A stretch of 44,503 bases of DNA from an uncultured Sphingomonadales bacterium (GCA_903911985.1 CAIWFP010000014.1:1-44503), one strand, 5' to 3'. Shown: positions 14,495-39,688, numbered from the stretch's first letter. A program made the numbers and translations. Notes: generated from the sequence alone by a model not told the origin.

Positions 14495-15154
14495 TTGCCT
14501 TGGCACACGCCTGTTGATAAACTCTCAATCAGGCATGGGGGCAGTGCAATTCTGATCAAGGACGAAGTTGCTGCGCTCAAACGCGAGCGCACGATCGAAG
14601 CAGCAGCCCTGCTGTTTTATGAGCATGGCTATGAGAAAACCACGATCGATGCCATCGCCATCCATATGGGGGTGACGAAGCCGTTCATTTACGCGCATTT
14701 CAAATCCAAGGCACAGTTGCTGGCGGAAATCTGCACACGCGGCGCAGCGATCTCGCTGCTGGCAATCAACGAAGCGCTAGCACTTGAGGTATCACAGATC
14801 GAAAAATTGCGCTATCTCGGTCGCCAGTTCGTGGTCGCAGTGCTGGAAAACCAACGCAATATCGCCGTGCTTACGCGCGAGGAGAAGCACCTCGACGGGC
14901 CTGATTTTGAACGGCTGAGCGGCCTGCGCCGCGAATTTGATCGCAAACTGGTGCAATTGCTCGACCACGGCGCAGCCGATGGCAGCTTTCACTTGCCCGA
15001 TACGCGCGTGGCCGCGCTGGCGATCGGCGGCCTTGTCAGCTGGGCCTATGTCTGGTTTCGACCGCATGGTCGCCTGACTATCGACGAGCTGGCAGGCACC
15101 ATTTCCGACCTGATCCTGGCCTTGGCCGGGGTCCGGGTGGAAACCCTGGCCTGA
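14495..15154 (+). CDS. TetR/AcrR family regulator (KstR2-like C-terminus), TetR-2; start uncertain
   Basis: HTH IEAAALLFYEHGYEKTTIDAIAIHMGVTKPFIYAHFKSK. C-terminal GLVSWAYVWFRPHGRL. No nearby in-frame ATG, so TTG 14495 is used. Confidence 0.8.
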   Translation: MPWHTPVDKLSIRHGGSAILIKDEVAALKRERTIEAAALLFYEHGYEKTTIDAIAIHMGVTKPFIYAHFKSKAQLLAEICTRGAAISLLAINEALALEVSQIEKLRYLGRQFVVAVLENQRNIAVLTREEKHLDGPDFERLSGLRREFDRKLVQLLDHGAADGSFHLPDTRVAALAIGGLVSWAYVWFRPHGRLTIDELAGTISDLILALAGVRVETLA

Positions 15155-15168
15155 CCGCAATCCCACAC

Positions 15169-15189
15169 CAGGTCGAACAGATCGACCTG
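15169..15189. terminator. Hairpin between convergent genes
   Basis: CAGGTCGA-acaga-TCGACCTG. No U-tract. Confidence 0.35.
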
Positions 15190-15290
15190 CGCCCGAAACC
15201 GTGCACGCGCGGGAGGGGAAAACGCCGGGGGGTCTGCGGCAATGGACCGCTCGCTCCTGGCCGGTAGTGCGGCATTGTCAGCGCGACACT

Positions 15291-16523
15291 TTACCGCGAT
15301 CGTGGCGGGCCCAGGCTGTCGCGCAAATGCGGATCGGCAATGTCGGCAATGCGCCGTGCCCGCTCGGTGAAATCGGTGGCACGGATATCGGCGATGCCGT
15401 GCTCGGTCACGATCACGTCCACATCGCTTTGCGCGGACGTGACATAGCCGCAGGCGATGCGGGGGACGATGCGGCTTTTGTCGCTGCGCTCGTTGGCGGA
15501 TGGCAGGGCAAGGATGGCAAGTCCGCCGGAGGAACGGCGTGCCGCCCGGAAATAGTCCGGCTGGCCACTGGAAGCACCGATATAGCGTTCGCCCAGAAAT
15601 TCGGCATTGACCTGGCCGCGCAAGTCAACCTCGATCCCGGAATTGATCGCCATGAACGGCGATCCTGCGATCGGTACCACAAGATCGGAGGGCATGGCGA
15701 AGCCCAGCACGCCATCCTCTGCCACCTTGCGGTAGAAACCGGCACTGCCAACCGCCAGCGACGCCAGGCATGATCCGGCATCGGTACGATCAATCGCGCC
15801 GGCCGACAGCAGGTGGTCAAACCATTCGCCGACCATGCCCGACCGGATGCGCAGCCCGCGCCGGTCTGCCAGGGCATGCGCAATCGCATCGGACAGCCGC
15901 CCGATACCCAGTTGCACGGTGGCGCCATCGGGCACCAGCCGGGCAACATGCGCGGCGATCTGCGCCTGCACGCCACCAACCGGTTCGGCCGGCCATTCGG
16001 GCAAGGGTGTATCGCTGTGCAGCGCAACCACCACTTCGCTGGCATGGAGGCGGCAGTGGTTGCGCGTAACCGGAATGCGCGCGTTCACTTCGACCACAAC
16101 CACCCGTGCCACGCGCGTCGCTTCCCAGACATAGTCGGCGGTGAAACCAAGGCTGTGGAAACCGTCCGCATCGGCTGGTGAGACCTGCAATAGGACCACA
16201 TCGACAGGCAAGGCCTGCGACACAAGTGCCGCGCTCAATTGCGACATCGAAAACGGAATGACGCGCGCACCGTCACGGGCGAGAAGCGGCCCCATCGCGC
16301 CGAGGCCACAATACGTGGTCACCGCCAGATCGGCAGGCACCCCGGACTTCCACGCCGGATTGTGCGAAAATCCGCAGAACACCGACAGCCGGGCCAGTCG
16401 CGGCGCAACGTCGAACAGGGCTGTGACCAGCCCGATCGGCTCCGCCGTCGCCTGCCCCACGATCACCCTGTCGCCCGGACGCAGATGGTCCATCAAAACG
16501 TCGACGGGATGATGCGTGTTCAC
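15291..16523 (-). CDS. Acetyl-CoA hydrolase/transferase family (4-hydroxybutyrate CoA-transferase-like)
   Basis: LLQVSPADADGFHSLG, VPDGATVQLGIG, INSGIEVDLRGQVNAE, GQPDYFRAA and VIVTEHGIAD. Confidence 0.85.
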   Translation of the reverse strand: MNTHHPVDVLMDHLRPGDRVIVGQATAEPIGLVTALFDVAPRLARLSVFCGFSHNPAWKSGVPADLAVTTYCGLGAMGPLLARDGARVIPFSMSQLSAALVSQALPVDVVLLQVSPADADGFHSLGFTADYVWEATRVARVVVVEVNARIPVTRNHCRLHASEVVVALHSDTPLPEWPAEPVGGVQAQIAAHVARLVPDGATVQLGIGRLSDAIAHALADRRGLRIRSGMVGEWFDHLLSAGAIDRTDAGSCLASLAVGSAGFYRKVAEDGVLGFAMPSDLVVPIAGSPFMAINSGIEVDLRGQVNAEFLGERYIGASSGQPDYFRAARRSSGGLAILALPSANERSDKSRIVPRIACGYVTSAQSDVDVIVTEHGIADIRATDFTERARRIADIADPHLRDSLGPPRSR

Positions 16524-16535
16524 GGACCGGTGGCC

Positions 16536-17663
16536 TTATGCCGCGCCCGGCTTGATTGCGAGATGGTCGGGCAGCCGGCCGGCAATCGTCAGCGTCATGC
16601 TGCCGGTGCCATGGCTGGTTTCGCCATCGCGCGCCACTGTGATCGCCACCGGCTGGATGCGGTGCCAGTGTTCCTTTGCCGTGCCATCGGGATAGACGAC
16701 CTTCGCCGGATGCGAGACGTCCCAGCTGTCATGTTCCAGCACCAGTTCACCGCGCCAGGCGCCCAGACCGCGCCCATCGTTGAAACCGCCGCTATAGCCC
16801 AGCCCCTGCATTGCCACCGCCGACCCTTGCGCCAGCACATCGATCTGCAGGGTCGCGCCATTTTCCAGCGCGACTGCCAGGCTGGCCGTACGAAATCGGC
16901 GTGTGCCCTCGTGCAGGTCCACTTCCAGCGTAACATCGGCCACCGCGCTGGTGTGATGCGTTGCGCGATCGGTGATCACGCCCGTGGTGTACGGCGCATC
17001 ATCGCCGCGCCGTTGCAGCAGGATGGTGCCGCTGAGTGTATCTGTCGAAAAGAACAGGAAGGACATCACATGGCCCTTGTCCGCCAGCGCCAGCTTTGGC
17101 CCGGTCACCGGTTCGGGCACGCCCATCCCGCGCCGCACCCCCCACGAATGGTCCCGGCACGACCACCACCGGTCGAATTCAATCCGGTTGCCGGCAATTT
17201 CCAGATATCCGCTGGCCACGCCGATCTGGTCGAACCGGCGATAATCCTCGACCGTGCGGGATTGCAGACGGGTGTAGTGGGGATGTTCTTCGCGCGCCGG
17301 CTCCACGCATTCCCAGCGGATATGGCCATGCAGCGTGGCCTCACCCGGTTCGATCCGGATATCGAACGATTTCAGCGGTTCGATCGGCTGGATACGGATC
17401 GGGCCGCAAACGGTTTCGACGCTGCCACCAAGCGAACGCGAAACGCGCAGATTGTGCTGTTTGCCATCGACGATCATCACCACCGCCGCATCGAGCACAT
17501 TCATGTTGCGATAGGCACCCATCGTCACCTGGATCGCCACGCGCCCGTCGCCCGAATAGATCGCAAACCAGTACCGGTCGAAAAACCGGGGATCGCTGGT
17601 CCACACATGGTCAAACGTGGTTGGCAACTGGTGCCACAGGGTATCGTCCATAGCGGTCAGCAT
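16536..17663 (-). CDS. Conserved hypothetical protein, aromatic/beta-rich (possibly AttH/tocopherol-cyclase-like fold)
   Basis: 375-aa ORF with typical codon usage in a tightly coupled operon. Motifs SDPRFFDRYWF and RDHSWGVR. Confidence 0.7.
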   Translation of the reverse strand: MLTAMDDTLWHQLPTTFDHVWTSDPRFFDRYWFAIYSGDGRVAIQVTMGAYRNMNVLDAAVVMIVDGKQHNLRVSRSLGGSVETVCGPIRIQPIEPLKSFDIRIEPGEATLHGHIRWECVEPAREEHPHYTRLQSRTVEDYRRFDQIGVASGYLEIAGNRIEFDRWWSCRDHSWGVRRGMGVPEPVTGPKLALADKGHVMSFLFFSTDTLSGTILLQRRGDDAPYTTGVITDRATHHTSAVADVTLEVDLHEGTRRFRTASLAVALENGATLQIDVLAQGSAVAMQGLGYSGGFNDGRGLGAWRGELVLEHDSWDVSHPAKVVYPDGTAKEHWHRIQPVAITVARDGETSHGTGSMTLTIAGRLPDHLAIKPGAA

Positions 17664-17666
17664 AAG

Positions 17667-18131
17667 TCAGGTCCTGGCAGAAGATGGGGCGGACGGCGCG
17701 ACGGTCGGCACATACCGCATGGGCACGCGTGAAGCCCGTTCGATCATGAAGCGTTCAACCGCAGCACGCATGGCCAGGGACAGATCGGGGCAGACCACCG
17801 CTTCGGCCAGCAGGCCGCGCAACAGGCCGTTGTGCCCATCAAGCGCGGCCGGATCATCGATATCGGTTGGCGGCGCTGCATGTGCGGCAGCGATACGTGA
17901 CACAAGCTCTGGTGGCAGGGCGGGACACAGCGAAACCAGCAGGTGCAGCGTAGCGGCGTTGTCAGCCCGCAGAAATCCGGCAACCTTTGGCTGCGCTTCG
18001 GCCAACATGCGCAAATTCGCGATCAGATTGTCGAGAATGGTCCGCGCCAGCGGGTCCGCCACGCACGGCGCAACCACCGTTCCCAGAATGCGGCAGGTGC
18101 CGTGCAGCTGTTCTTCGACGGTCGGTCTCAA
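17667..18131 (-). CDS. Small helical hypothetical protein (possible LvaB/DUF6285-like kinase partner)
   Basis: TTG start overlaps the kinase stop (TTGA), giving MRPTVEEQLHGTCRILGTVVAP. Function inferred from position only. Confidence 0.6.
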   Translation of the reverse strand: MRPTVEEQLHGTCRILGTVVAPCVADPLARTILDNLIANLRMLAEAQPKVAGFLRADNAATLHLLVSLCPALPPELVSRIAAAHAAPPTDIDDPAALDGHNGLLRGLLAEAVVCPDLSLAMRAAVERFMIERASRVPMRYVPTVAPSAPSSART

Positions 18132-19159
18132 CGCAACCCCTCCATCATCGTCAGCATCGGCCGAAACAACCATGACGGCGTCTGAAACACCCGGTCATAG
18201 CGCCCGGCGACGAATTCACTGACCGCGGTCAGCTGGATCACCGCCAGTTTCCAGCACGAAAACAGGTTCCACCAGGTTAGCTCAGCCTCGCTGACGGCGT
18301 GGCCGGTCAAGCGCGCATAGGCCTCGACAATCTGTGCACGTTCCCAATGGCCGGCGATCTGGTGTTCGCGTCTGCGTACCGGATTGGTGATCCAGCCAAG
18401 GTCTTCCAGCGGATCGCCCAGATGCGCGGTTTCCCAATCCAGCTTGGCGGTGATGCGATTTCCTTCGACCAGCGCATTGCCGGGTTTGAAATCGCCATGG
18501 ACAAGGACAATCGCCCGGGCAGCCGGGGCGGTACGCGCCAGGCCGGCCAGGATGTAATCGAGCTCGGGATGCGGTTCGAGCTGTACCCGGCGATATTCGG
18601 TTTCCCACCGGGTCAGTTCATGGCGCGATGGCATTCCCGCTGGCAGGCCAAGCGTATCGCCCAGGCCCTGTGCCTGCCAGTCCACCGCCTGGATATCGAC
18701 CAGCAGGTCGAGAAACGCACGCGCCAGGCCCAGCCGCTCTGCCAGTGGCCGATCGCCGTTAAGCACCATGTAATCGCAATGCCCGGCCACGCGCTCCATC
18801 ACCACCGCGGGCGCGCCCAGGAACCGGCCATCCGGGTCCATCCAGTGCACCTTGGGCGCGGCCACGGCGCTTGGCTCCAGCGCCTTGAGAATGGCGAATT
18901 CGCACGTGCGCTCGGTCTTGAGCAGAGTTCCGGCGGCGTCGCGCATCAGCATCAACCGATGCGCGTGATGGCCATCCGCGTCGGTCCAGCTGGCATCCAG
19001 CGACCAGTTTTCGCGCGACAGGCCGCCCGCCGACCGGGTCAGACCGGAAAACCGGATGTCGCGCGCAGAGGGCATTGCGTGCTGCATCAACTGATGCAGG
19101 CCGGTGCTGACCCGCCCGGCCACGTCCTGCGCGGTGTCGGGCAAAGCCGCGTTCGTCAT
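18128..19159 (-). CDS. APH-family phosphotransferase (ACAD10/11 N-terminal / LvaA-like)
   Basis: GGLSRE, VMERVAG, LVHGDFKPGN and LDWETAHLGDPLEDLGW. Confidence 0.88.
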   Translation of the reverse strand: MTNAALPDTAQDVAGRVSTGLHQLMQHAMPSARDIRFSGLTRSAGGLSRENWSLDASWTDADGHHAHRLMLMRDAAGTLLKTERTCEFAILKALEPSAVAAPKVHWMDPDGRFLGAPAVVMERVAGHCDYMVLNGDRPLAERLGLARAFLDLLVDIQAVDWQAQGLGDTLGLPAGMPSRHELTRWETEYRRVQLEPHPELDYILAGLARTAPAARAIVLVHGDFKPGNALVEGNRITAKLDWETAHLGDPLEDLGWITNPVRRREHQIAGHWERAQIVEAYARLTGHAVSEAELTWWNLFSCWKLAVIQLTAVSEFVAGRYDRVFQTPSWLFRPMLTMMEGLR

Positions 19160-19167
19160 GGGCAGGG

Positions 19168-20052
19168 TCAAAAGACTGCAACCGGAGTGAGCGGGCTGCC
19201 CGTGCCGCCGACGATGGGCAAGGGTGCCGCCACAAACAGGAATTGCGCCACGCCGGTCTGCGCCAACGGTTCCAGCACCAGACCTTCGAGCAGGGTGATC
19301 CCGTAATCGCGGATCAGGCGCTGATGCACGGGGAACACCGTTCCGGCAGGAAAGGGCATCGCCTCTATCGCGAAGTTGTCGGCGCCGACCATGGCCACGC
19401 CCGATTGGGCCAGCCACAGTGCAGCCTCGACATCGATGCCCGGTTCGACGTTGAAATTCACCTCGCGCTGCGGCACGCCCTTTTGCGCTTCCTGCCAGCC
19501 GGTGCGGATCAGCACGGCATCGCCCTGGCGCAGGGTGATCCCCGCCAATTGAGCGGCGCGTTCCAGTTCACCCCGTCCGATCGATTGGCCAGGCAGCAGC
19601 GGCGCGCCATGCAGCGCGACGATGTCGAGCAGCACGCCGCGGGTGACAATCGGCGGCACTTTGTCGATGCCGCAACGCTTCGCGCCGGTCGTGCTGGTCG
19701 TGCCCGTGCCGGGATGGCCGTTGTAAAGCTGATCATCGCACCAGACATGACACAGTGCATCCAGATGCGTGCCGACATGCAGGGCCATGATCACCGTATC
19801 ATCGGCGAACTGGAACCCGCCCCTGGCCGGCGCACCACCGGCATAGTCACCGCCGTCACGCGTCATGAAATGCTGCAAACCCGGCCGCAACGCTGGAACG
19901 GGGGTGTTTTTCGACAAGGGCTGCGCCAGCGACAGCACCCTGCCCTGCCGCACCAGTCCAGCGGCCAGCACGACATCAGCCGGGGTAACCAGATTGAGTG
20001 CGCCGATCTCGTCCTGATCGCCCCACTGCCCCCATGCTTCACGCGACATCAT
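19168..20052 (-). CDS. Cyclase family metal-dependent hydrolase (kynurenine formamidase-like)
   Basis: WGQWGDQDEIGALN, HVGTHLDALCH, TRGVLLD, GDAVLIRTGW and GGTGSPLTPVA. Confidence 0.88.
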   Translation of the reverse strand: MMSREAWGQWGDQDEIGALNLVTPADVVLAAGLVRQGRVLSLAQPLSKNTPVPALRPGLQHFMTRDGGDYAGGAPARGGFQFADDTVIMALHVGTHLDALCHVWCDDQLYNGHPGTGTTSTTGAKRCGIDKVPPIVTRGVLLDIVALHGAPLLPGQSIGRGELERAAQLAGITLRQGDAVLIRTGWQEAQKGVPQREVNFNVEPGIDVEAALWLAQSGVAMVGADNFAIEAMPFPAGTVFPVHQRLIRDYGITLLEGLVLEPLAQTGVAQFLFVAAPLPIVGGTGSPLTPVAVF

Positions 20053-21638
20053 GCTTCTCCGGCGCTGGTGACGGCTGCCAGGGCATCGTCCTTGAGGGCG
20101 TTGCGCATCAGTTTGCCGGTTACGGTGGTCGGCAGCCCGGTGCGAAACAGGATAAGATCGGGCGCCTTGTAGGTTGAGGCAAGCGCCCGGCAGTGTTCGA
20201 TCAGGTCCGCTGCGGTCGGGGACGCACCCGCGATGGGCACCACGGTGGCAACGATGATTTCGCCGCGCCGCGCATCGGGCACGCCAACCACCCCGGCCTG
20301 CGCCACCAGCGGGTGTTGCAACAACACGTCTTCCACCTCGGCGGGGGACACATTGATGCCCGCGCGCTTGATCATTTCCGAATGCCGGCCGCAGAACACC
20401 AATTCGCCCGCGTCCGTCAGAAATCCGATGTCGCCGGTGCGGTACCAGCCATCGGCCGTGAACACATCGGCGTTGAGCGCGGCGCTTTTGCCACCATAGC
20501 CGGGCATCAGGTAACCGGCCACTTCGATCAGGCCCTGTTCGCCCGCTGCAACCGGGACGGTGCTTGCCGCATCGATGATCCGCACGCTGACCCCGGGCAG
20601 CGGGGGGCCCTGACAATGCGCACGGCGGTCAAGCGGCCATTCGGCCGGGGTGACGCAGCAATTGCCATAGGTTTCGCTCGAGCCATAAATGTTGCAGATC
20701 TGCGCGGCGCCAAGCCCGGTTGCGGTGCTGATGATATCCTGCGGCGTGCCGGTGGTCAGCCCGGTGCGCAGGCTGGCCGTGCGCGCGGGTGCAAAGGCTG
20801 GTTCTGCGATCATCGCGGCGGTCATCGGCGGCAGGGTATAGATCGCCGTGCAGCCATGCTGTTCGATCAGCGCAAGCGCTGCAGCCGGCTCGAACCGGTC
20901 CTGCAGAACCATGGTCGCGCCATGCGTCAGGATCGCCGGAAGCGCGTTGGCCGACCCATAGGCCCAGAACAGCGGAACCGACACGTGCACGCGATCCTGT
21001 GCGGTCAGCCCCATGCGTTCACCAATCGCAAAACCGTTTTCGATCAGACCGCCATGCGCCAGCCGTACGGCCTTTGGCGTGCTGGTCGAACCCGAAGTGT
21101 AAAGGATCAGCGCATCGTCGCCGGGCTGCGCCGCATGCTCCACCGGCCCGGCACCGGCGTGTTGCAGTACGTCTTCATAGCGGCGCCAGGGTGCGGGCGC
21201 CTCCCCTTCCCCGACCAGAATCCGGTGATCGAGCACGAGGCCCGTCTCCGCGATCACGGTCGCCACGCTGGCAATGAAGTCTTCCCGGGCAAAGCCGGCC
21301 ACCGCAAACAGCGTGCGAACACCCGCATCCGCCAGAATAAAGCCGATTTCGCGTGGTTTTGACCAAGTGCTGATCGGTACGAGGGTCGCGCCGACCGCCT
21401 GCGCGCCGAAAGCGATCTCAAGCCATTCGACACAGTTGCTCATCAGCACGCCGACCCGGTCGCCTGCCTTCACACCCTGCGCGAGCATGGCTTTGGCCAC
21501 ACGGTCGGCCCTACTGGCCAACCCGGCATACGTCATGATCGCTTGATCGGCGATAACGGCGGGATGCTGCGGATGCACGCCTGCCATTTCGGCCAGCACC
21601 CCGGGCAAAGTGCGACTGTGCGGAAGGATCATGGACAT
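20049..21638 (-). CDS. AMP-dependent acyl-CoA synthetase/ligase
   Basis: ILYTSGSTSTPK, YGSSET, GWYRTGDIG and LPTTVTGK. Start coupled to the BVMO-3 stop. Confidence 0.9.
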   Translation of the reverse strand: MSMILPHSRTLPGVLAEMAGVHPQHPAVIADQAIMTYAGLASRADRVAKAMLAQGVKAGDRVGVLMSNCVEWLEIAFGAQAVGATLVPISTWSKPREIGFILADAGVRTLFAVAGFAREDFIASVATVIAETGLVLDHRILVGEGEAPAPWRRYEDVLQHAGAGPVEHAAQPGDDALILYTSGSTSTPKAVRLAHGGLIENGFAIGERMGLTAQDRVHVSVPLFWAYGSANALPAILTHGATMVLQDRFEPAAALALIEQHGCTAIYTLPPMTAAMIAEPAFAPARTASLRTGLTTGTPQDIISTATGLGAAQICNIYGSSETYGNCCVTPAEWPLDRRAHCQGPPLPGVSVRIIDAASTVPVAAGEQGLIEVAGYLMPGYGGKSAALNADVFTADGWYRTGDIGFLTDAGELVFCGRHSEMIKRAGINVSPAEVEDVLLQHPLVAQAGVVGVPDARRGEIIVATVVPIAGASPTAADLIEHCRALASTYKAPDLILFRTGLPTTVTGKLMRNALKDDALAAVTSAGEA

Positions 21639-23254
21639 CACCGGATCACGAACCCGCGGTAGCCGTCCCGGGCAATTTCGTTGCATATTTGGGTGTAAGT
21701 GCCCAGCCCGCCAATATAGGGCAGAAACACGCGCGGCTTGCCCGGCACATTGGCCCCCATGTACCAGCTGTTGGCCTGCACGTGCAGCGTCTGGGCGGCG
21801 ATGTCCGCAACATGCGCCACCCATTCGTCTTCGGCCGCTAGCTCCGGCTCGATCAGATCGGCCCCGGTGCGTGCCATCGTGCCCAGGCAATCGGCCACCC
21901 ATTCAACATGCTGTTCGATCGACATCACCACGTTGGTCAGGATCGACGGACTGCCGGGCCCGGTGATCGTGAACAGGTTGGGATAGTCCGCCACCATGAT
22001 GCCGAGATAGCTTTTGGGCCCGTCGCGCCACTTGTCCTTCAACCCCACGCCGCTGCGGCCGATGATATCGATGCGGGTCAACGATCCGGTCACCGCATCA
22101 TAGCCCGTGGCAAACACGATACTGTCGAACGCATGGTCTGCGGCACTGGTGGCAATGCCGGTGGTGGTGATCCGGGTGATCGGGGTGGCGCGCACATCAA
22201 CCAGCGTGACATTCGGCCGATTGAACATGGCATAGTAGTCGGTATCGACACAGATGCGCTTTGTGCCGATCGCGTGGTCAGTCGGCATCAGCAGCGCGGC
22301 CTTGTCCCAGTCCTGCACAATCGACCCGATCTTGTTGCGCACATAGTCGGCGGCGATATCGTTGGCCGCCTTGTCGCGGAACATATCGTTGAAACAATGT
22401 GTAAAATTGGCACCACCCCGGGCCCAGCGCGCATCCAGTTCGGCCTGGCGTTCCGCTGCGGTCATGTCGAACGCGCTGCGCTGGCTGTAATCATACAACG
22501 CACCTGATCGCGACGCCTTGGCCGCTGCACGATGGCGCGGATAGTGCTTTTTCCATTCATCCTGCACCGATCGCGGCAAAGGCTGGTTCCATGCCGGGAT
22601 GCTGAAATTGGGGGTGCGTTGAAACACGGTCAGTTCCGCAGCCTCGGCCGCAATCATCGGCGCCACCTGTATGCCTGACGATCCGGTGCCGATCACCGCC
22701 ACCCGCTGCCCGGTAAAATCGACCGGTTGATGCGGCCATTGGCCGGTGTGATACCATTGGCCCGCGAAATCATCCAACCCGGCAAAATCCGGCTTGCGCG
22801 GCGCGGAAAGCGCGCCAGTGGCCAGGATGCAATAGCGCGCGGTGGCCGTTTCGCCCGTGTCGGTGGTGACGATCCACATGCCCTGATCAGGGTCAAAGCG
22901 GGCCGATTGTATCCAGGTGTTGAAATGGATCTCGCGGCGCAGGTCAAAGCGATCGGCGACATGATCCAGATAGCGCAGGATTTCGGGCTGCGCCGGATAA
23001 CGCTCGCTCCATTCCCATTCCTGCTGCAATTCATCGGAGAACGAGAACGAATATTCCAGGCTTGGAACATCACACCGCGCGCCGGGATAGCGGTTCCAGT
23101 ACCACGTACCGCCCACGCTATCGCCGCCTTCGAAGCACTGCGCGCTCAGGCCCAGCTCGCGCAATTTGTGCAGCATGTAGAGGCCGGCAAAGCCTGCACC
23201 AACGACGATCGCATCATGGTGCGGACGGTTCGGAATTGACGTGACATTCGACAT
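21638..23254 (-). CDS. Type I Baeyer-Villiger monooxygenase (BVMO-3)
   Basis: GAGFAG, WNRYPGARCD, FAGQWYHTGQWP, GTGSSG, GTKRIC and SWYMGANVPGKPR. Confidence 0.93.
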   Translation of the reverse strand: MSNVTSIPNRPHHDAIVVGAGFAGLYMLHKLRELGLSAQCFEGGDSVGGTWYWNRYPGARCDVPSLEYSFSFSDELQQEWEWSERYPAQPEILRYLDHVADRFDLRREIHFNTWIQSARFDPDQGMWIVTTDTGETATARYCILATGALSAPRKPDFAGLDDFAGQWYHTGQWPHQPVDFTGQRVAVIGTGSSGIQVAPMIAAEAAELTVFQRTPNFSIPAWNQPLPRSVQDEWKKHYPRHRAAAKASRSGALYDYSQRSAFDMTAAERQAELDARWARGGANFTHCFNDMFRDKAANDIAADYVRNKIGSIVQDWDKAALLMPTDHAIGTKRICVDTDYYAMFNRPNVTLVDVRATPITRITTTGIATSAADHAFDSIVFATGYDAVTGSLTRIDIIGRSGVGLKDKWRDGPKSYLGIMVADYPNLFTITGPGSPSILTNVVMSIEQHVEWVADCLGTMARTGADLIEPELAAEDEWVAHVADIAAQTLHVQANSWYMGANVPGKPRVFLPYIGGLGTYTQICNEIARDGYRGFVIR

Positions 23255-34373: not shown

Positions 34374-35215
34374 CCAGATCAGTCGCGGTTGTCGGCGGCG
34401 GCACCATGGGTGTCGGCATCATCTATGTGTCGGCGCTGGCCGGTAGCGATGTGGTGTTTGTCGAACCCGATGCAGCGCGCGCCGCTGCGGTCGTGCGCAC
34501 GGTGGCCGACACCGCCGCCGCTGCGGTCACGCGCGGCAAGATAAACGTCGATGGTGCTGCGGCACTGTCGCAGCGGATCACCGGGCTGGCCGCGATCGAG
34601 GCGCTGCCCGCCGGACTTGATCTGGTGATCGAAACCGTTCCCGAACGGCTGGAGCTGAAGCTGGACGTGCTGGCGCGCATCGCCGCGCGCGCACCTGCGC
34701 TGATCGGCACCAACACCAGCGCGCTGTCGATCGACCGGCTGGCCGCCGCTTTGCCTGACCCCACGATGTTTCTGGGCATGCACTTTTTCAATCCGGTATG
34801 GTCGATCAAGCTGGTCGAGCTGGTTCAGGGCGCCGCCACTGCGCCGGTCGCGCTGGATCTGGCGCGGAGCTTTGTTGCGCACATTGGCAAGGAATCGCTG
34901 ACCGTGCGCGATGTGCCGGGCTTTGCCACCAGCCGGCTCGACCTGATTGCCAGCCTTGAAGCGATGCGCATGCTGGAAAGCGGGGTGGCCAGCGCGGCGG
35001 ACATCGATCGTGCCGCAGTGGTCGCCTATTGCCATCCGGTGGGGCCGCTGCGACTGAGCGATATTGTCGGGCTGGATGTCCGGCTGGATATCGCCCGCAC
35101 GCTGGAGGCGGCGCACGGGCCGCGTTTTGCCCCGCCACAGATTTTGATCGAGATGGTTGCCGGGGGCAAACTCGGCGCGAAATCCGGACAGGGCTTTTTC
35201 ACCTGGCCGGAATGA
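34370..35215 (+). CDS. 3-hydroxyacyl-CoA dehydrogenase
   Basis: GGGTMG, ETVPE.LELK, NTSAL, GMHFFNP and GKLGAKSGQGFF. Confidence 0.92.
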   Translation: MTRSVAVVGGGTMGVGIIYVSALAGSDVVFVEPDAARAAAVVRTVADTAAAAVTRGKINVDGAAALSQRITGLAAIEALPAGLDLVIETVPERLELKLDVLARIAARAPALIGTNTSALSIDRLAAALPDPTMFLGMHFFNPVWSIKLVELVQGAATAPVALDLARSFVAHIGKESLTVRDVPGFATSRLDLIASLEAMRMLESGVASAADIDRAAVVAYCHPVGPLRLSDIVGLDVRLDIARTLEAAHGPRFAPPQILIEMVAGGKLGAKSGQGFFTWPE

Positions 35216-35240
35216 TTTTTGGTTTTTTGGGAGACGATTG

Positions 35241-36422
35241 ATGTCAGCACCGTCGCTGTTTGAGTCCACGTTGGTCGATACCGCCGACCATCACCGCGAT
35301 CTGCGCGAAAGCGTGCGCAAACTGGTCAGCAAATTCGGCCGCAAATACTTTCAGCAGGTCGTCAACGCCGGTGAAAAACCGGTGGAACTGTGGAACGCCC
35401 TGGGTGAAGCCGGGTTTCTGGGCGTGCACATTGCCGAACAACACGGCGGCGGTGGCGGCGGTCTGTCCGAACTCAATGTGGTGATCGAAGAGGTTGCGGC
35501 CAACGGCTGCCCGATGTTGCAGATGGTGATCAATTCGATCACCGCGCCGATCATCGCCGGGTGTGGCACCGACGCACACAAGCGCGACTGGTTGCCGGGC
35601 ATCGCCAATGGCACGCGCCGGATGTCGTTCGCGATTACCGAACCCGACGCCGGATCGAACACCCACAAAGTCACCACCAACGCCCAGCGCACCAGCACCG
35701 GGTGGGTGATCAACGGCGCAAAATACTGGACATCCGCTCTGGATGAGGCTGATGCGGTGATGGTGGTGGCGCGCGACGGGGACCCGGTGCCGGATGGACA
35801 ACGGGCCGGCCTGTCGCTGTTTATTGTTCCCGCTGATGCCCCGGGCATTTCCAAAACCCGCATCGACAGTGCACTGCGCAGTTCGGAAAAGCAGTTTTCG
35901 GTGTTTTTCGATAATGTCGAAATTCCCGAATCCGCGCTGGTCGGCACGCCTGGCGCCGGGCTGCATCAGGTGTTTACCGGGCTGAACCCCGAACGCGTCG
36001 CCGCCGCTGCGGTCAACAACGGCATTGCGCGGTTCGCGATCGCGCAGGCCACACAATATTGCAAGGACCGATCGGTGTGGAAAACCCCGATCGGCGCGCA
36101 CCAGGGCGTCGCGCATCCGCTGGCCGAGGCCTATATCAACGTGCAGGCCGCGCGCCTGTTGACCGCGCGTGCTGCGCAACTGTGTGACGGAGGCGAAGAT
36201 GCCGCCGAAACCGCCAACATGGCCAAATTTGCCGCCGCCGAAGCATCGCTGAAAGCGCTCGACCAGGCGATTCAGGTGCATGGTGGCAATGGCCTGTCGA
36301 ACGAATATGGTCTGTCGGACCTGTGGTTCATCGCGCGCCTGCACCGCACCGCGCCGGTCAGCCGTGAAATGATCCTGAACTATGTTGCCCAGCACAGCCT
36401 TGGCCTGCCCAAGAGCTATTAA
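35241..36422 (+). CDS. Acyl-CoA dehydrogenase
   Basis: FAITEPDAGS, INGAKYWTS, LNPER, PIGAHQGVAHPLA and QVHGGNG. Confidence 0.93.
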   Translation: MSAPSLFESTLVDTADHHRDLRESVRKLVSKFGRKYFQQVVNAGEKPVELWNALGEAGFLGVHIAEQHGGGGGGLSELNVVIEEVAANGCPMLQMVINSITAPIIAGCGTDAHKRDWLPGIANGTRRMSFAITEPDAGSNTHKVTTNAQRTSTGWVINGAKYWTSALDEADAVMVVARDGDPVPDGQRAGLSLFIVPADAPGISKTRIDSALRSSEKQFSVFFDNVEIPESALVGTPGAGLHQVFTGLNPERVAAAAVNNGIARFAIAQATQYCKDRSVWKTPIGAHQGVAHPLAEAYINVQAARLLTARAAQLCDGGEDAAETANMAKFAAAEASLKALDQAIQVHGGNGLSNEYGLSDLWFIARLHRTAPVSREMILNYVAQHSLGLPKSY

Positions 36423-37962: not shown

Positions 37963-38765
37963 CGGATGGCCTGCACCCTTCGGCCCGGCTGCTGCGCGGC
38001 TTTGCCACCGATTTCCTGACTTGCCATGACCCGGCCGTGGTGCCCCGGATCATGGACCCGGCCTATCAACTGAACATTGGCGGGCACGTGCTGGCGGGCC
38101 GCGACCACGCCTATGCGCCGGCAACCGTGGCCCAGCTTGACCAGTTTCCGGGGCTGATCGTGACCGTGCACGATGTGCTGGTCGGGCCGGATATGGTGGC
38201 GATGCGGTTCACCGAACATGGCGTTTCGCGCAAGCATGCCCCCCATGCCGCAGCATGGGGCGGGGTGACGCTGTTTCAGATCGAAAATGGCCGGCTGCGC
38301 CATGGCTGGGCCGAAGAGGACTATTTTGCGCGCAAGCGGCAATTGGCCAGCGGCGTGTGCGATCTGATCCGGCCACCGGCATCTGCGCCATGGGATACGC
38401 CCTGCCTTGCGCCCGACCTGCAGGCCGAAGCGGTTGCACGCACCTGGCTGGAAGACCCGCGATCCTGCCTCGACGGCGAAATGGTGGAAACGATCGACTG
38501 CCATGGGCCGCTCGCCACAGCGCTGATCGCGCCACTGCATGTGCAGATCAACGCAGCGTTGTCCGCCGGACCGCGCGTGGCTTTCCAGATCGACGTGCAT
38601 GGTGCTTATGCTGGCGGATTTGACGACATCCCGACGGACCATGTCGGCTACCCCGTTATCCTGCGGTTCGCCGGCCTGCTGGACACCGCCGGCAATCGCG
38701 TGACCCGCGCACAGATAGTAGCCGACCGCCTTGGCCTGCAGCGCAGCCTGCTGGGTGCGCGATGA
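37959..38765 (+). CDS. SnoaL/NTF2-like ester-cyclase family protein (probable tandem domains)
   Basis: FPGLIVTVHDVLVGPDMVAMRFTEHG and GVTLFQIENGRL. Second half has GPRVAFQIDVHGAY. Overlaps both neighbours. Confidence 0.65.
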   Translation: MTDGLHPSARLLRGFATDFLTCHDPAVVPRIMDPAYQLNIGGHVLAGRDHAYAPATVAQLDQFPGLIVTVHDVLVGPDMVAMRFTEHGVSRKHAPHAAAWGGVTLFQIENGRLRHGWAEEDYFARKRQLASGVCDLIRPPASAPWDTPCLAPDLQAEAVARTWLEDPRSCLDGEMVETIDCHGPLATALIAPLHVQINAALSAGPRVAFQIDVHGAYAGGFDDIPTDHVGYPVILRFAGLLDTAGNRVTRAQIVADRLGLQRSLLGAR

Positions 38766-39688
38766 GCAAGATCATCATCACCTGCGCGGTCACCGGCGGC
38801 GCGCACACACCGACAATGTCGCCTGCCCTGCCGGTAACGCCGCAGGATATCGCCGATCAGGCCATTGCGGCCGCCGAGGCCGGCGCGGCAATCCTGCATC
38901 TGCACGCGCGCGTGCCGGAAACTGGCGCGCCGACCGGCGATCCTGATATCTATGCACGGTTCTTGCCGGTCATCCGCCAGCGCACCGATGCCGTGGTCAA
39001 CATCACCACCGGAGGATCGGCAACGATGCCGATGGCCGATCGCCTGGCGGCGGCCAAACGCTTTCGCCCGGAAATGTGTTCGCTCAACATGGGGTCGATG
39101 AACTTTGCGTTCTTTCCGGCAGCGCAGCGGATCACCACGTGGAAACACGACTGGGAACAGGCCTATGTGGTCAATTCCGACGACTATATCTTCCGCAACA
39201 CCTTTCGCGATATCGCGTATATCCTGGAAACGCTGGGCGATGCCGGCACCCGGTTCGAACACGAATGCTATGACCTGAGCCACTTGTACAATCTGGCGCA
39301 TTTCGTCGATCGTGGCTTGGTCAAGCCACCGTTCTTCATCCAGATGATCTTCGGCATTCTGGGCGGTATCGGCCCTGATCTTGAAAATCTGATGTTCATG
39401 AAATCGACCGCCGACCGGCTGTTTGGCCGCGATTCATTTCAATGGTCGGTTCTCGCCGCCGGCCGGCACCAGATGCCGTTCCTGACCCAGGCCGCGCTGA
39501 TGGGTGGCCATGTGCGCGTGGGTCTGGAAGACAGCCTGTTCATCGCGCGCGGCGAGCTCGCCACATCGAATGCCCAACAGGTGGAAAAGATCGTGCGCAT
39601 CATTCGTGATATGGGCCACGAACCGGCCACACCCGCCGAGGCGCGCGCAATGCTGAACCTGAAGGGCAACGATCGGGTGGAGTTCTAG
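38762..39688 (+). CDS. Beta-keto acid cleavage enzyme (BKACE/DUF849)
   Basis: KIIITCAVTG, AGAAILHLHAR, PEMCSLNMGS, EHECYD and GGHVRVGLED. Confidence 0.93.
   Translation: MSKIIITCAVTGGAHTPTMSPALPVTPQDIADQAIAAAEAGAAILHLHARVPETGAPTGDPDIYARFLPVIRQRTDAVVNITTGGSATMPMADRLAAAKRFRPEMCSLNMGSMNFAFFPAAQRITTWKHDWEQAYVVNSDDYIFRNTFRDIAYILETLGDAGTRFEHECYDLSHLYNLAHFVDRGLVKPPFFIQMIFGILGGIGPDLENLMFMKSTADRLFGRDSFQWSVLAAGRHQMPFLTQAALMGGHVRVGLEDSLFIARGELATSNAQQVEKIVRIIRDMGHEPATPAEARAMLNLKGNDRVEF

Follow-up and report, generated by a model that had tools for sequence, protein, structure and literature searches.

Beta-oxidation comes to a halt at hydroxyl groups that crotonases are unable to remove, and two characterised ATP-dependent solutions to this problem are considered here. 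In the Lva/ACAD10-11 route a kinase and a flavoenzyme act on coenzyme A (CoA) esters, and LvaB, a 12-kDa protein, pulls down with LvaA (PMC6692424). In the 25-HSK/25-PSL route a kinase and a lyase act on a free steroid in an anaerobe: Sterolibacterium denitrificans dehydrates 25-hydroxysteroids in two steps, by a kinase and then by a separate C-O lyase (PMC8449060), and this lyase, 25-phosphosteroid lyase (25-PSL), is named as putative in PMC11061730. The DNA analysed here, a 44,503-nt stretch from an uncultured freshwater Sphingomonadales bacterium (GCA_903911985.1, CAIWFP010000014.1:1-44503; the window, in its full length), carries at positions 15291-23254 a gene unit with a kinase, a small protein and a homologue of 25-PSL at its core. 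On balance it is reasonably likely that these three form a conserved unit for the ATP-dependent dehydration of a hydroxyacyl-CoA, the gene downstream handling the CoA and, in sphingomonads, a ligase, a Baeyer-Villiger monooxygenase (BVMO) and a cyclase-family hydrolase supplying the substrate. That kinase and lyase dehydrate a substrate of some kind, whether CoA ester or free alcohol, is a statement that can be made with good confidence.

The protein that carries the argument is one of 375 aa, which an earlier note on this DNA had left as an unknown protein and for which it had guessed the elimination step. The label can be dropped, as the protein reaches 263 bits on NCBIfam NF053593, the Rv3169 family, and thereby passes the cut-off of 150, and as a search of the PDB retrieves the 25-PSL entry 9FZN with an E value of 1e-27. 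A structural model built on an alignment of 48 homologues (pLDDT 84.8, as compared to 30 when no alignment was supplied) predicts a double beta-barrel of the AttH/CrtC type and superimposes on 25-PSL over the full length (Foldseek TM 0.79; Z 37.7, rmsd 2.7, 340 aligned residues, 22% identity), the next-best folds being AttH, pericyclases and kievitone hydratase with Z 20-22 (best 21.9). A profile of 88 diverse family members scores 25-PSL with 372 bits over positions 2-369, whereas a narrower profile of the clade reaches only its N-terminal half; therefore, by profile comparison, the 375-aa protein and its close relatives are a distinct subfamily of the 25-PSL family. The family as a whole is large, with 1,859 clusters at 50% identity matching its profile.

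The comparison extends to the presumed active site. In the printed PDB alignments 9G4C differs from 9FZN solely by the substitution D176N, and 9G4C is, by its title, the enzyme with phosphate and alkene product bound; thus D176 of 25-PSL, judging from the PDB titles and the D176N entry, is probably catalytic. D176 aligns to D171 of the 375-aa protein within an RD(R/H)SWG motif, and D171 is kept in 48/48 close and in 87/88 diverse members, alongside D6, H11, N53, R73, Q146, R170, S173, W174 and R177. The motif RD(H/R)SWG, H11, Q146 and arginines are common to the 375-aa protein and 25-PSL. With homology over the full length and a modelled fold of the same kind, the 375-aa protein very likely performs phosphate elimination, an activity transferred to it from 25-PSL, and the guess of the earlier note is to this extent borne out.

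The second line of evidence is the constancy of the neighbourhood. A scan of GTDB genomes yielded 70 loci with a close homologue of the lyase, distributed over Sphingomonadales, Burkholderiales, other Gammaproteobacteria, Actinomycetota and Myxococcota, with automatic clusterings of open reading frames (ORFs), which are noisy, serving only for the choice of neighbours. In 57 of the 70 loci, three of the 70 being cut off upstream, the genes for kinase, small protein and lyase lie side by side in one direction, so that the co-occurrence of these genes, on which the earlier note had staked its proposal, is found well beyond the window. The small protein stands directly upstream of the lyase in 59/70 loci, and a CoA transferase follows directly downstream in 52/70, which belongs to family I in 43 and to family III in nine. 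As the gene behind that of the lyase encodes a CoA transferase, drawn from one or the other of two unrelated families, the substrate would probably be a CoA ester. No acyl-CoA dehydrogenase (ACAD) with at least 40% identity to the DUF6285-linked ACAD, taken as a stand-in for LvaC, is encoded in any of the 70 loci. Less constant companions are an SCP-x/Ltp2-like thiolase (21 loci), the cyclase (19 loci at 55% identity or more) and the ligase (12 loci at 40% or more). Cultured carriers are Piscinibacter sakaiensis 201-F6 and Nocardioides jensenii JCM 1364.

In the genus of the window the kinase clade is patchy, occurring in 5/151 genomes including the window's own; in the other four carriers BVMO, ligase, cyclase, kinase, small protein and lyase follow each other in this sequence as part of a collinear island; contig ends cut two of the four, and one is the L012 contig. 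The association of the lyase family with APH-fold kinases is wider than this clade. An APH kinase gene is found no more than 800 nt from an Rv3169-family gene in 18/18 loci of the genus (window included) and in 12/17 other loci, the family pairs with several different kinase clades, and one distant Rv3169 subfamily retains a homologue of the small protein in a changed gene order. At the DUF6285 loci an ACAD adjoins 11 of the 25 listed kinases, and at one such locus (L174) a DUF7064/7065 lyase-like gene stands in its place; ACAD and lyase thus look interchangeable, the pattern expected of alternative eliminating enzymes. A literature search on DUF6285, DUF7064 and DUF7065 found no paper.

The kinase has an intact active site (R73, E87, HGD223xK225xxN228 and D241WE243, with conservation of the motifs checked in 35 homologues). 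For the ACAD10 kinase of C. thermarum the equivalent residues were shown to be essential (PMC13596139), and the window kinase has all of them. Among the PDB matches of the window kinase, 9O56, 3DXP, ACAD11 (8V3V), Rv3168 (3ATS) and 9FSG, the best are of the ACAD10/11 type, and 9O56 we infer to be the C. thermarum enzyme of that report (PMC13596139). The catalytic loop reads HGDFKPGN, as compared to WGDARPGN in 9FSG and WGDARVGN in Rv3168, and 9FSG scores 77 bits with the profile of the window-kinase clade versus 185 bits with that of the WGDA clade. In quick trees of 104 rows, which comprise 18 representatives of the window-kinase clade and no LvaA, with rows below 280 aa or duplicated dropped, the window kinase falls into a clade of its own (SH-aLRT 100). 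This clade lies on the side of kinases with DUF6285 or similar small partners and is parted by a branch of 93 from the WGDA-type kinases and from the GGQSNPT-type kinases, which we take to be of the ACAD10 type. Approximately unbiased (AU) tests (LG+G4, 56 selected rows) reject neither a grouping with the WGDA-type, Rv3168-like kinases (p 0.40) nor one with the GGQSNPT-type kinases (p 0.28). Of the LvaA/LvaB-like pair of the earlier note the APH/ACAD10-type active site stands, and the resemblance beyond it is weakened by these two groupings and by a small protein that is only remotely DUF6285-like. A role in aminoglycoside resistance was rejected, APH(3') reaching 27 bits versus a cut-off of 205; in total, the genome of the window has 24 APH matches in 2.6 Mb. 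At Myxococcota-type loci (L054, L057-L061, L065, L069), lyases of about 50% identity are arranged divergently, head-to-head, with a WGDA-type kinase and have neither small protein nor CoA transferase beside them; the profile of these kinases scores 9FSG (185 bits) and Rv3168 best, and the lyase has changed its kinase partner there.

The small protein gave no family match: Pfam gives no match for the window protein and no consistent match among 35 members, the DUF6285 match being absent in all of these, and a search of the PDB with it returned nothing meaningful. A remote similarity is all that connects it to DUF6285, with an hhalign probability of 51% (E 1.5e-4) versus full-length DUF6285 members and of 3% versus N-terminally truncated DUF6285 pieces; bridging sequences are matched by both the small-protein and the DUF6285 profile. 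DUF6285, to which LvaB presumably belongs, was not found in the genome of the window (75% complete). By analogy to LvaB, the small protein is likely a partner or subunit of the kinase.

The Cat1-family protein encoded downstream of the lyase is closest to 4-hydroxybutyrate CoA transferases (3GK7, E 1e-50), as the earlier note had it, and possesses the QXGhG loop in the form QLGIG. Nevertheless, HSE238M of 3GK7 aligns to RSG229M, so that Gly229 replaces the catalytic Glu238, the active-site residue of Cat1 enzymes (PMC11659651), and Gly occupies this position in 44/44 aligned rows, a few of which come from duplicate loci. An ordinary 4-hydroxybutyrate CoA transferase is hence rejected. ThnP of anaerobic naphthalene degradation is a Cat1 enzyme that equally has Gly there; it moves CoA from one carboxyl of a diacid to the other and is unable to draw on external donors, and the remaining intramolecular transferases listed in the same report are of family III (PMC11659651), the family that replaces the Cat1 gene in nine loci. 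As the glutamate-to-glycine change is shared with ThnP, the analogy suggests that the protein is a candidate intramolecular CoA transferase and its substrate the CoA ester of a hydroxy-diacid. Cat1 proteins deprived of the glutamate may form a wider, unstudied group.

Put together, the unit would operate as follows. The kinase would phosphorylate a hydroxyl group which a crotonase could not handle, be it for its distance from the thioester or for steric hindrance. The lyase would then expel the phosphate through Asp171 and leave a C=C bond, probably on an acyl-CoA, with the unsaturated product passing to the beta-oxidation genes of the same island. More speculatively, the glutamate-less Cat1 protein would move CoA between the carboxyls of a dicarboxylic intermediate, as ThnP does. 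Equally speculative is the supply of the substrate in sphingomonads, where the ligase might activate a ketoacid, the BVMO insert an oxygen and the cyclase-family hydrolase open the resulting ester or lactone to give the hydroxy acid. The combination of all these steps would amount to a CoA-dependent route, free of flavin, for the hydroxy-dicarboxylic acids that Baeyer-Villiger ring opening leaves, in which an Lva-style two-subunit kinase works with a 25-PSL-family lyase in place of the LvaC/ACAD10 flavoenzyme and the glutamate-less Cat1 protein flips the CoA for further beta-oxidation; this is a tentative proposal and rather less likely than not. The literature searched contained no phospho-lyase of this fold acting on acyl-CoA, no family I intramolecular CoA transferase in aerobes and no description of a partnered HGD-type kinase that is combined with both a glutamate-less Cat1 protein and a lyase of the 25-PSL family. 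The new chemistry which the earlier note expected has, in the strict sense, no support so far, since dehydration by a kinase and a C-O lyase is already known from the anaerobic sterol degradation of S. denitrificans.

Several observations weigh against the dehydration of a hydroxyacyl-CoA by this unit. The 70 loci are related and their counts not independent, five of the 51 triads with sufficient downstream DNA have neither CoA transferase, and the Gly of the Cat1 protein is not specific to the pathway, as an unrelated Cat1 paralogue of the same genome (C239, 2471-1452) also has Gly (HSGL) at the Glu position. A conventional ACAD resembling long-chain acyl-CoA dehydrogenase (LCAD) is present in 18/70 loci, and an ACAD lies 12 kb from the operon in the window itself. 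With respect to the lyase, identity to 25-PSL is just 22%, the clade profile covers half of that enzyme, R177 of 25-PSL corresponds to His172 and the same fold also contains hydratases and Diels-Alderases; literature searches found no paper on the structure or mechanism of 25-PSL, so that the role of D176 rests on PDB titles. Finally, the substrate of 25-PSL is a tertiary phosphoester that is not bound to CoA.

This last point leads to the alternative that survives best, although it remains unlikely, namely that kinase and lyase dehydrate a free tertiary alcohol, such as the hydroxy-isopropyl group of a terpenoid or steroid, as 25-HSK and 25-PSL do, with the CoA genes serving other steps. The only characterised member of the lyase family works on a free alcohol (PMC8449060 and the PDB titles), elimination in the absence of a flavin should be easiest from a tertiary phosphoester, close relatives of the lyase pair with WGDA-type kinases where no CoA transferase adjoins, and the AU test does not reject a grouping of the window kinase with just these kinases. 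The window kinase itself, however, has the HGDFKPGN loop where 9FSG and 3ATS have the WGDAR motif, it comes with a small partner while monomeric 25-HSK is active, and the presence of a CoA transferase of one or the other family behind the lyase in most loci speaks against a free alcohol.

A classic Lva-type route, in which the kinase pair makes a 4-phosphoacyl-CoA, an ACAD from another locus removes the phosphate and the 375-aa protein is a hydratase, isomerase or cyclase, is improbable. It would be in line with the ACAD10/11-type matches of the kinase, the remote DUF6285 likeness of the small protein and the unrejected grouping with GGQSNPT-type kinases, with the ACADs of the genome, which are 34-38% identical to the DUF6285-linked ACAD, and the LCAD-like ACADs of the 18 loci, and with the fold shared by kievitone hydratase and pericyclases. 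The structural similarity to 25-PSL is, however, far above that to any of these other folds and accompanied by common conserved residues, and the constant neighbour of the kinase is the lyase, not an ACAD, with the DUF6285-linked type missing throughout the 70 loci. Least probable is a different fate of the phosphorylated intermediate, that is, substitution or cyclisation with a nucleophile of the same molecule displacing the phosphate, or hydration of an alkene that phosphorylation would trap, as part of tailoring or detoxification and not of catabolism: cyclases and hydratases in the fold, the patchy distribution in the genus and the full reversibility of 25-HSK (PMC8449060) fit with it, but the island is mostly devoted to import and catabolism (TonB receptor, PQQ dehydrogenase, ALDH, esterases, ACAD, hydratase, hydroxyacyl-CoA dehydrogenase, thiolase and 3,5-dioxohexanoate cleavage enzyme) and the elimination in S. 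denitrificans is described as essentially irreversible (PMC8449060).

For the dehydration of a hydroxyacyl-CoA, the upstream genes (Table 1) would be a source of substrate in some hosts only. The BVMO (at least 50% identity) is encoded in 11/70 loci and occupies the operon position in 5/70, or 5/46 when loci with at least 7 kb of upstream DNA are counted, all of them in Sphingomonadales; as an obligatory part of the module it is thus rejected. Its PDB scores are 632 bits for PAMO, 602 for steroid monooxygenase, 470 for CHMO and 436 for OTEMO, a similarity which does not give the substrate range. PAMO and steroid monooxygenase typically turn open-chain ketones into esters. The cyclase-family hydrolase is by sequence a candidate opener of an ester or lactone, or of a ring by C-C cleavage, and two HSL-type esterases are encoded in the same island. 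The lactone origin of the substrate assumed in the earlier note has found no specific support so far, as the nearest solved relatives of the BVMO are PAMO and steroid monooxygenase and not CHMO; it is possible, but cannot hold for all loci, because most of them have no BVMO in the operon.

Table 1. Genes of the unit in the window, listed from the BVMO to the CoA transferase gene
Feature	Position	Strand	Basis and remarks
Type I Baeyer-Villiger monooxygenase (BVMO), 538 aa	21638..23254	-	FMO-like Pfam
AMP-binding acyl-CoA ligase, 529 aa	20049..21638	-	PF00501 + PF13193
Cyclase-family (KynB-like) metallohydrolase, ~294 aa	19168..20052	-	PF04199, E 7.6e-26
APH-fold small-molecule kinase, 343 aa from ATG at 19159	18128..19159	-	PF01636
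Small protein, 154 aa, TTG start at 18131 overlapping the kinase stop, GGAGG upstream	17667..18131	-	ORF coupled translationally to kinase
Rv3169-family protein, 375 aa, predicted phosphate-eliminating C-O lyase	16536..17663	-	NF053593, 25-phosphosteroid lyase homology
Cat1-family (acetyl-CoA hydrolase/transferase) protein, 410 aa	15291..16523	-	PF13336/PF02550

The seven ORFs are co-directional and overlap with their neighbours or lie no more than 12 nt apart, which on gene layout makes them a putative operon. In the order of Table 1 the junctions are a 1-nt overlap, a 4-nt overlap, an 8-nt gap, a 4-nt overlap (TTGA), a 3-nt gap and a 12-nt gap, and the GC content at third codon positions is 0.70-0.77 in all seven frames. 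The minus-strand unit described in the earlier note is in this way recovered with all its ORFs, its families confirmed by Pfam and NCBIfam, and its statement that no ACAD resides in the operon likewise holds, with one ACAD gene located farther off in the same island (35157-36422). An assembly artefact is excluded because independent contigs carry the same stretch: among the four of 24 runs taken into the comparison, a contig of another freshwater run (X8, record 25) runs through the entire stretch, differing by 95 substitutions and by a single 1-nt gap that lies outside the ORFs, and a contig of a second run (X10, record 1) covers 15000-23105 (8.1 kb). Scans of the window for promoters, terminators and repeats gave matches at chance level only.

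The window is the whole of contig C14 of a genome that is 75% complete, and over its entire length (1-44503) it constitutes one catabolic island with four BVMOs, a flavin-containing monooxygenase (FMO), two HSL esterases, three CoA ligases and two cyclases, a set of MaoC, MaoC, OB-fold and lipid-transfer thiolase genes (ChsH/Ltp2-like), beta-oxidation genes, a pyrroloquinoline quinone (PQQ) dehydrogenase, an aldehyde dehydrogenase (ALDH), a TonB receptor, two TetR regulators and a Crp regulator. Large parts of the island are collinear in four relatives of the genus. On the plus strand at 38762-39688 a BKACE enzyme scores 522 bits on the NCBIfam model of 3,5-dioxohexanoate:acetyl-CoA acetone transferase, above the cut-off of 430; the second cyclase gene, with conservation of about 90% in relatives, adjoins it, and this may hint at the substrate that the island serves.

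Other settings of the lyase family differ from this island. At betaproteobacterial loci (L003, L017-L022, L025, L027-L029, L038 and others) the triad is ringed by genes for a TctC receptor, a family III CoA transferase, an LCAD-like ACAD, a pair of thiolase-C and OB-fold proteins, an FMO and a TetR regulator, surroundings that point to a carboxylate imported by a tripartite tricarboxylate transporter (TTT) system and possibly to a retro-aldol step. In the window's own genus a common Rv3169-family gene (17/41 genomes over the cut-off; L071, L072, L076, L078, L082) shows coupling with a kinase of the EcKL type and frequently has riboflavin and enolase genes nearby, a location that looks like a housekeeping site. 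On contigs C250 (L102) and C484 (L098) of the window's genome, additional APH kinases neighbour weak matches of the Rv3169/DUF7064 type, and these are probably more kinase-lyase modules. A strong expansion is seen in three small genomes (G161, G166 and G167; L137-L173), all from the genus to which the Sterolibacteriaceae record L041 belongs, with 11-18 lyase-family matches each, many of which have adjoining kinases. Records titled Akkermansia, Bordetella parapertussis and Klebsiella pneumoniae (L020, L027 and L048) contain loci that match Comamonadaceae or other environmental clades; their titles are probably wrong.

If the unit dehydrates hydroxyacyl-CoA in the way proposed, a large unnamed family including Rv3169 would gain a testable function, phospho-elimination would be extended to the oxygenase-rich catabolism of lakes by a module spread over freshwater Alpha-, Beta- and Gammaproteobacteria and Actinomycetota, and a flavin-free biocatalyst for dehydration would become available. 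Among the known systems, Rv3168-Rv3169 of Mycobacterium tuberculosis (NF053593; 3ATS) likewise joins an APH kinase to an Rv3169-family protein in one operon, in that case TetR-repressed (PMC5340868); Rv3168 is, however, a kinase of the WGDAR type, and the sections consulted of PMC5340868 describe no small partner, CoA transferase or function. ThnP, by its published description (PMC11659651), has in common with the window protein the Cat1 fold, the QXGhG loop and Gly for the catalytic Glu238, whereas its alternative Glu269 has no obvious counterpart there, as judged by offset in the alignment to 3GK7, and in the window Cat1 subfamily the usual His gives way to a conserved Arg227.

With Pseudomonas putida's lva operon (LvaA/LvaB and the ACAD LvaC) and mammalian ACAD10/ACAD11 (PMC11342911, PMC6692424) the unit has in common that an APH kinase is coupled to a small protein, that genes for CoA activation are present and that a hydroxyacyl-CoA would first be phosphorylated and then undergo elimination. 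It differs in that a flavin-free lyase takes the place of the LvaC-type flavoprotein, that the small protein has 154 aa as compared to the roughly 12 kDa of LvaB and no Pfam DUF6285 match, and that the kinase clade is separate, with LvaA, LvaB and LvaC compared by description and stand-ins. The 25-HSK/25-PSL system of S. denitrificans (9FZN, 9G2I, 9G4C), in turn, provides an APH-fold kinase, a homologous lyase of the same fold with D176 equivalent to D171, and the logic of phosphorylation followed by elimination. In that anaerobic host the two genes lie apart, the kinase is monomeric and the substrate a free tertiary steroid alcohol (PMC8449060), while in the window the genes are coupled, the kinase has an HGD motif in place of the WGDAR of 9FSG, a small partner and a CoA transferase are added and oxygenases surround the unit. 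Cumulatively, the unit looks like a hybrid of Lva/ACAD10-11 and 25-HSK/25-PSL.

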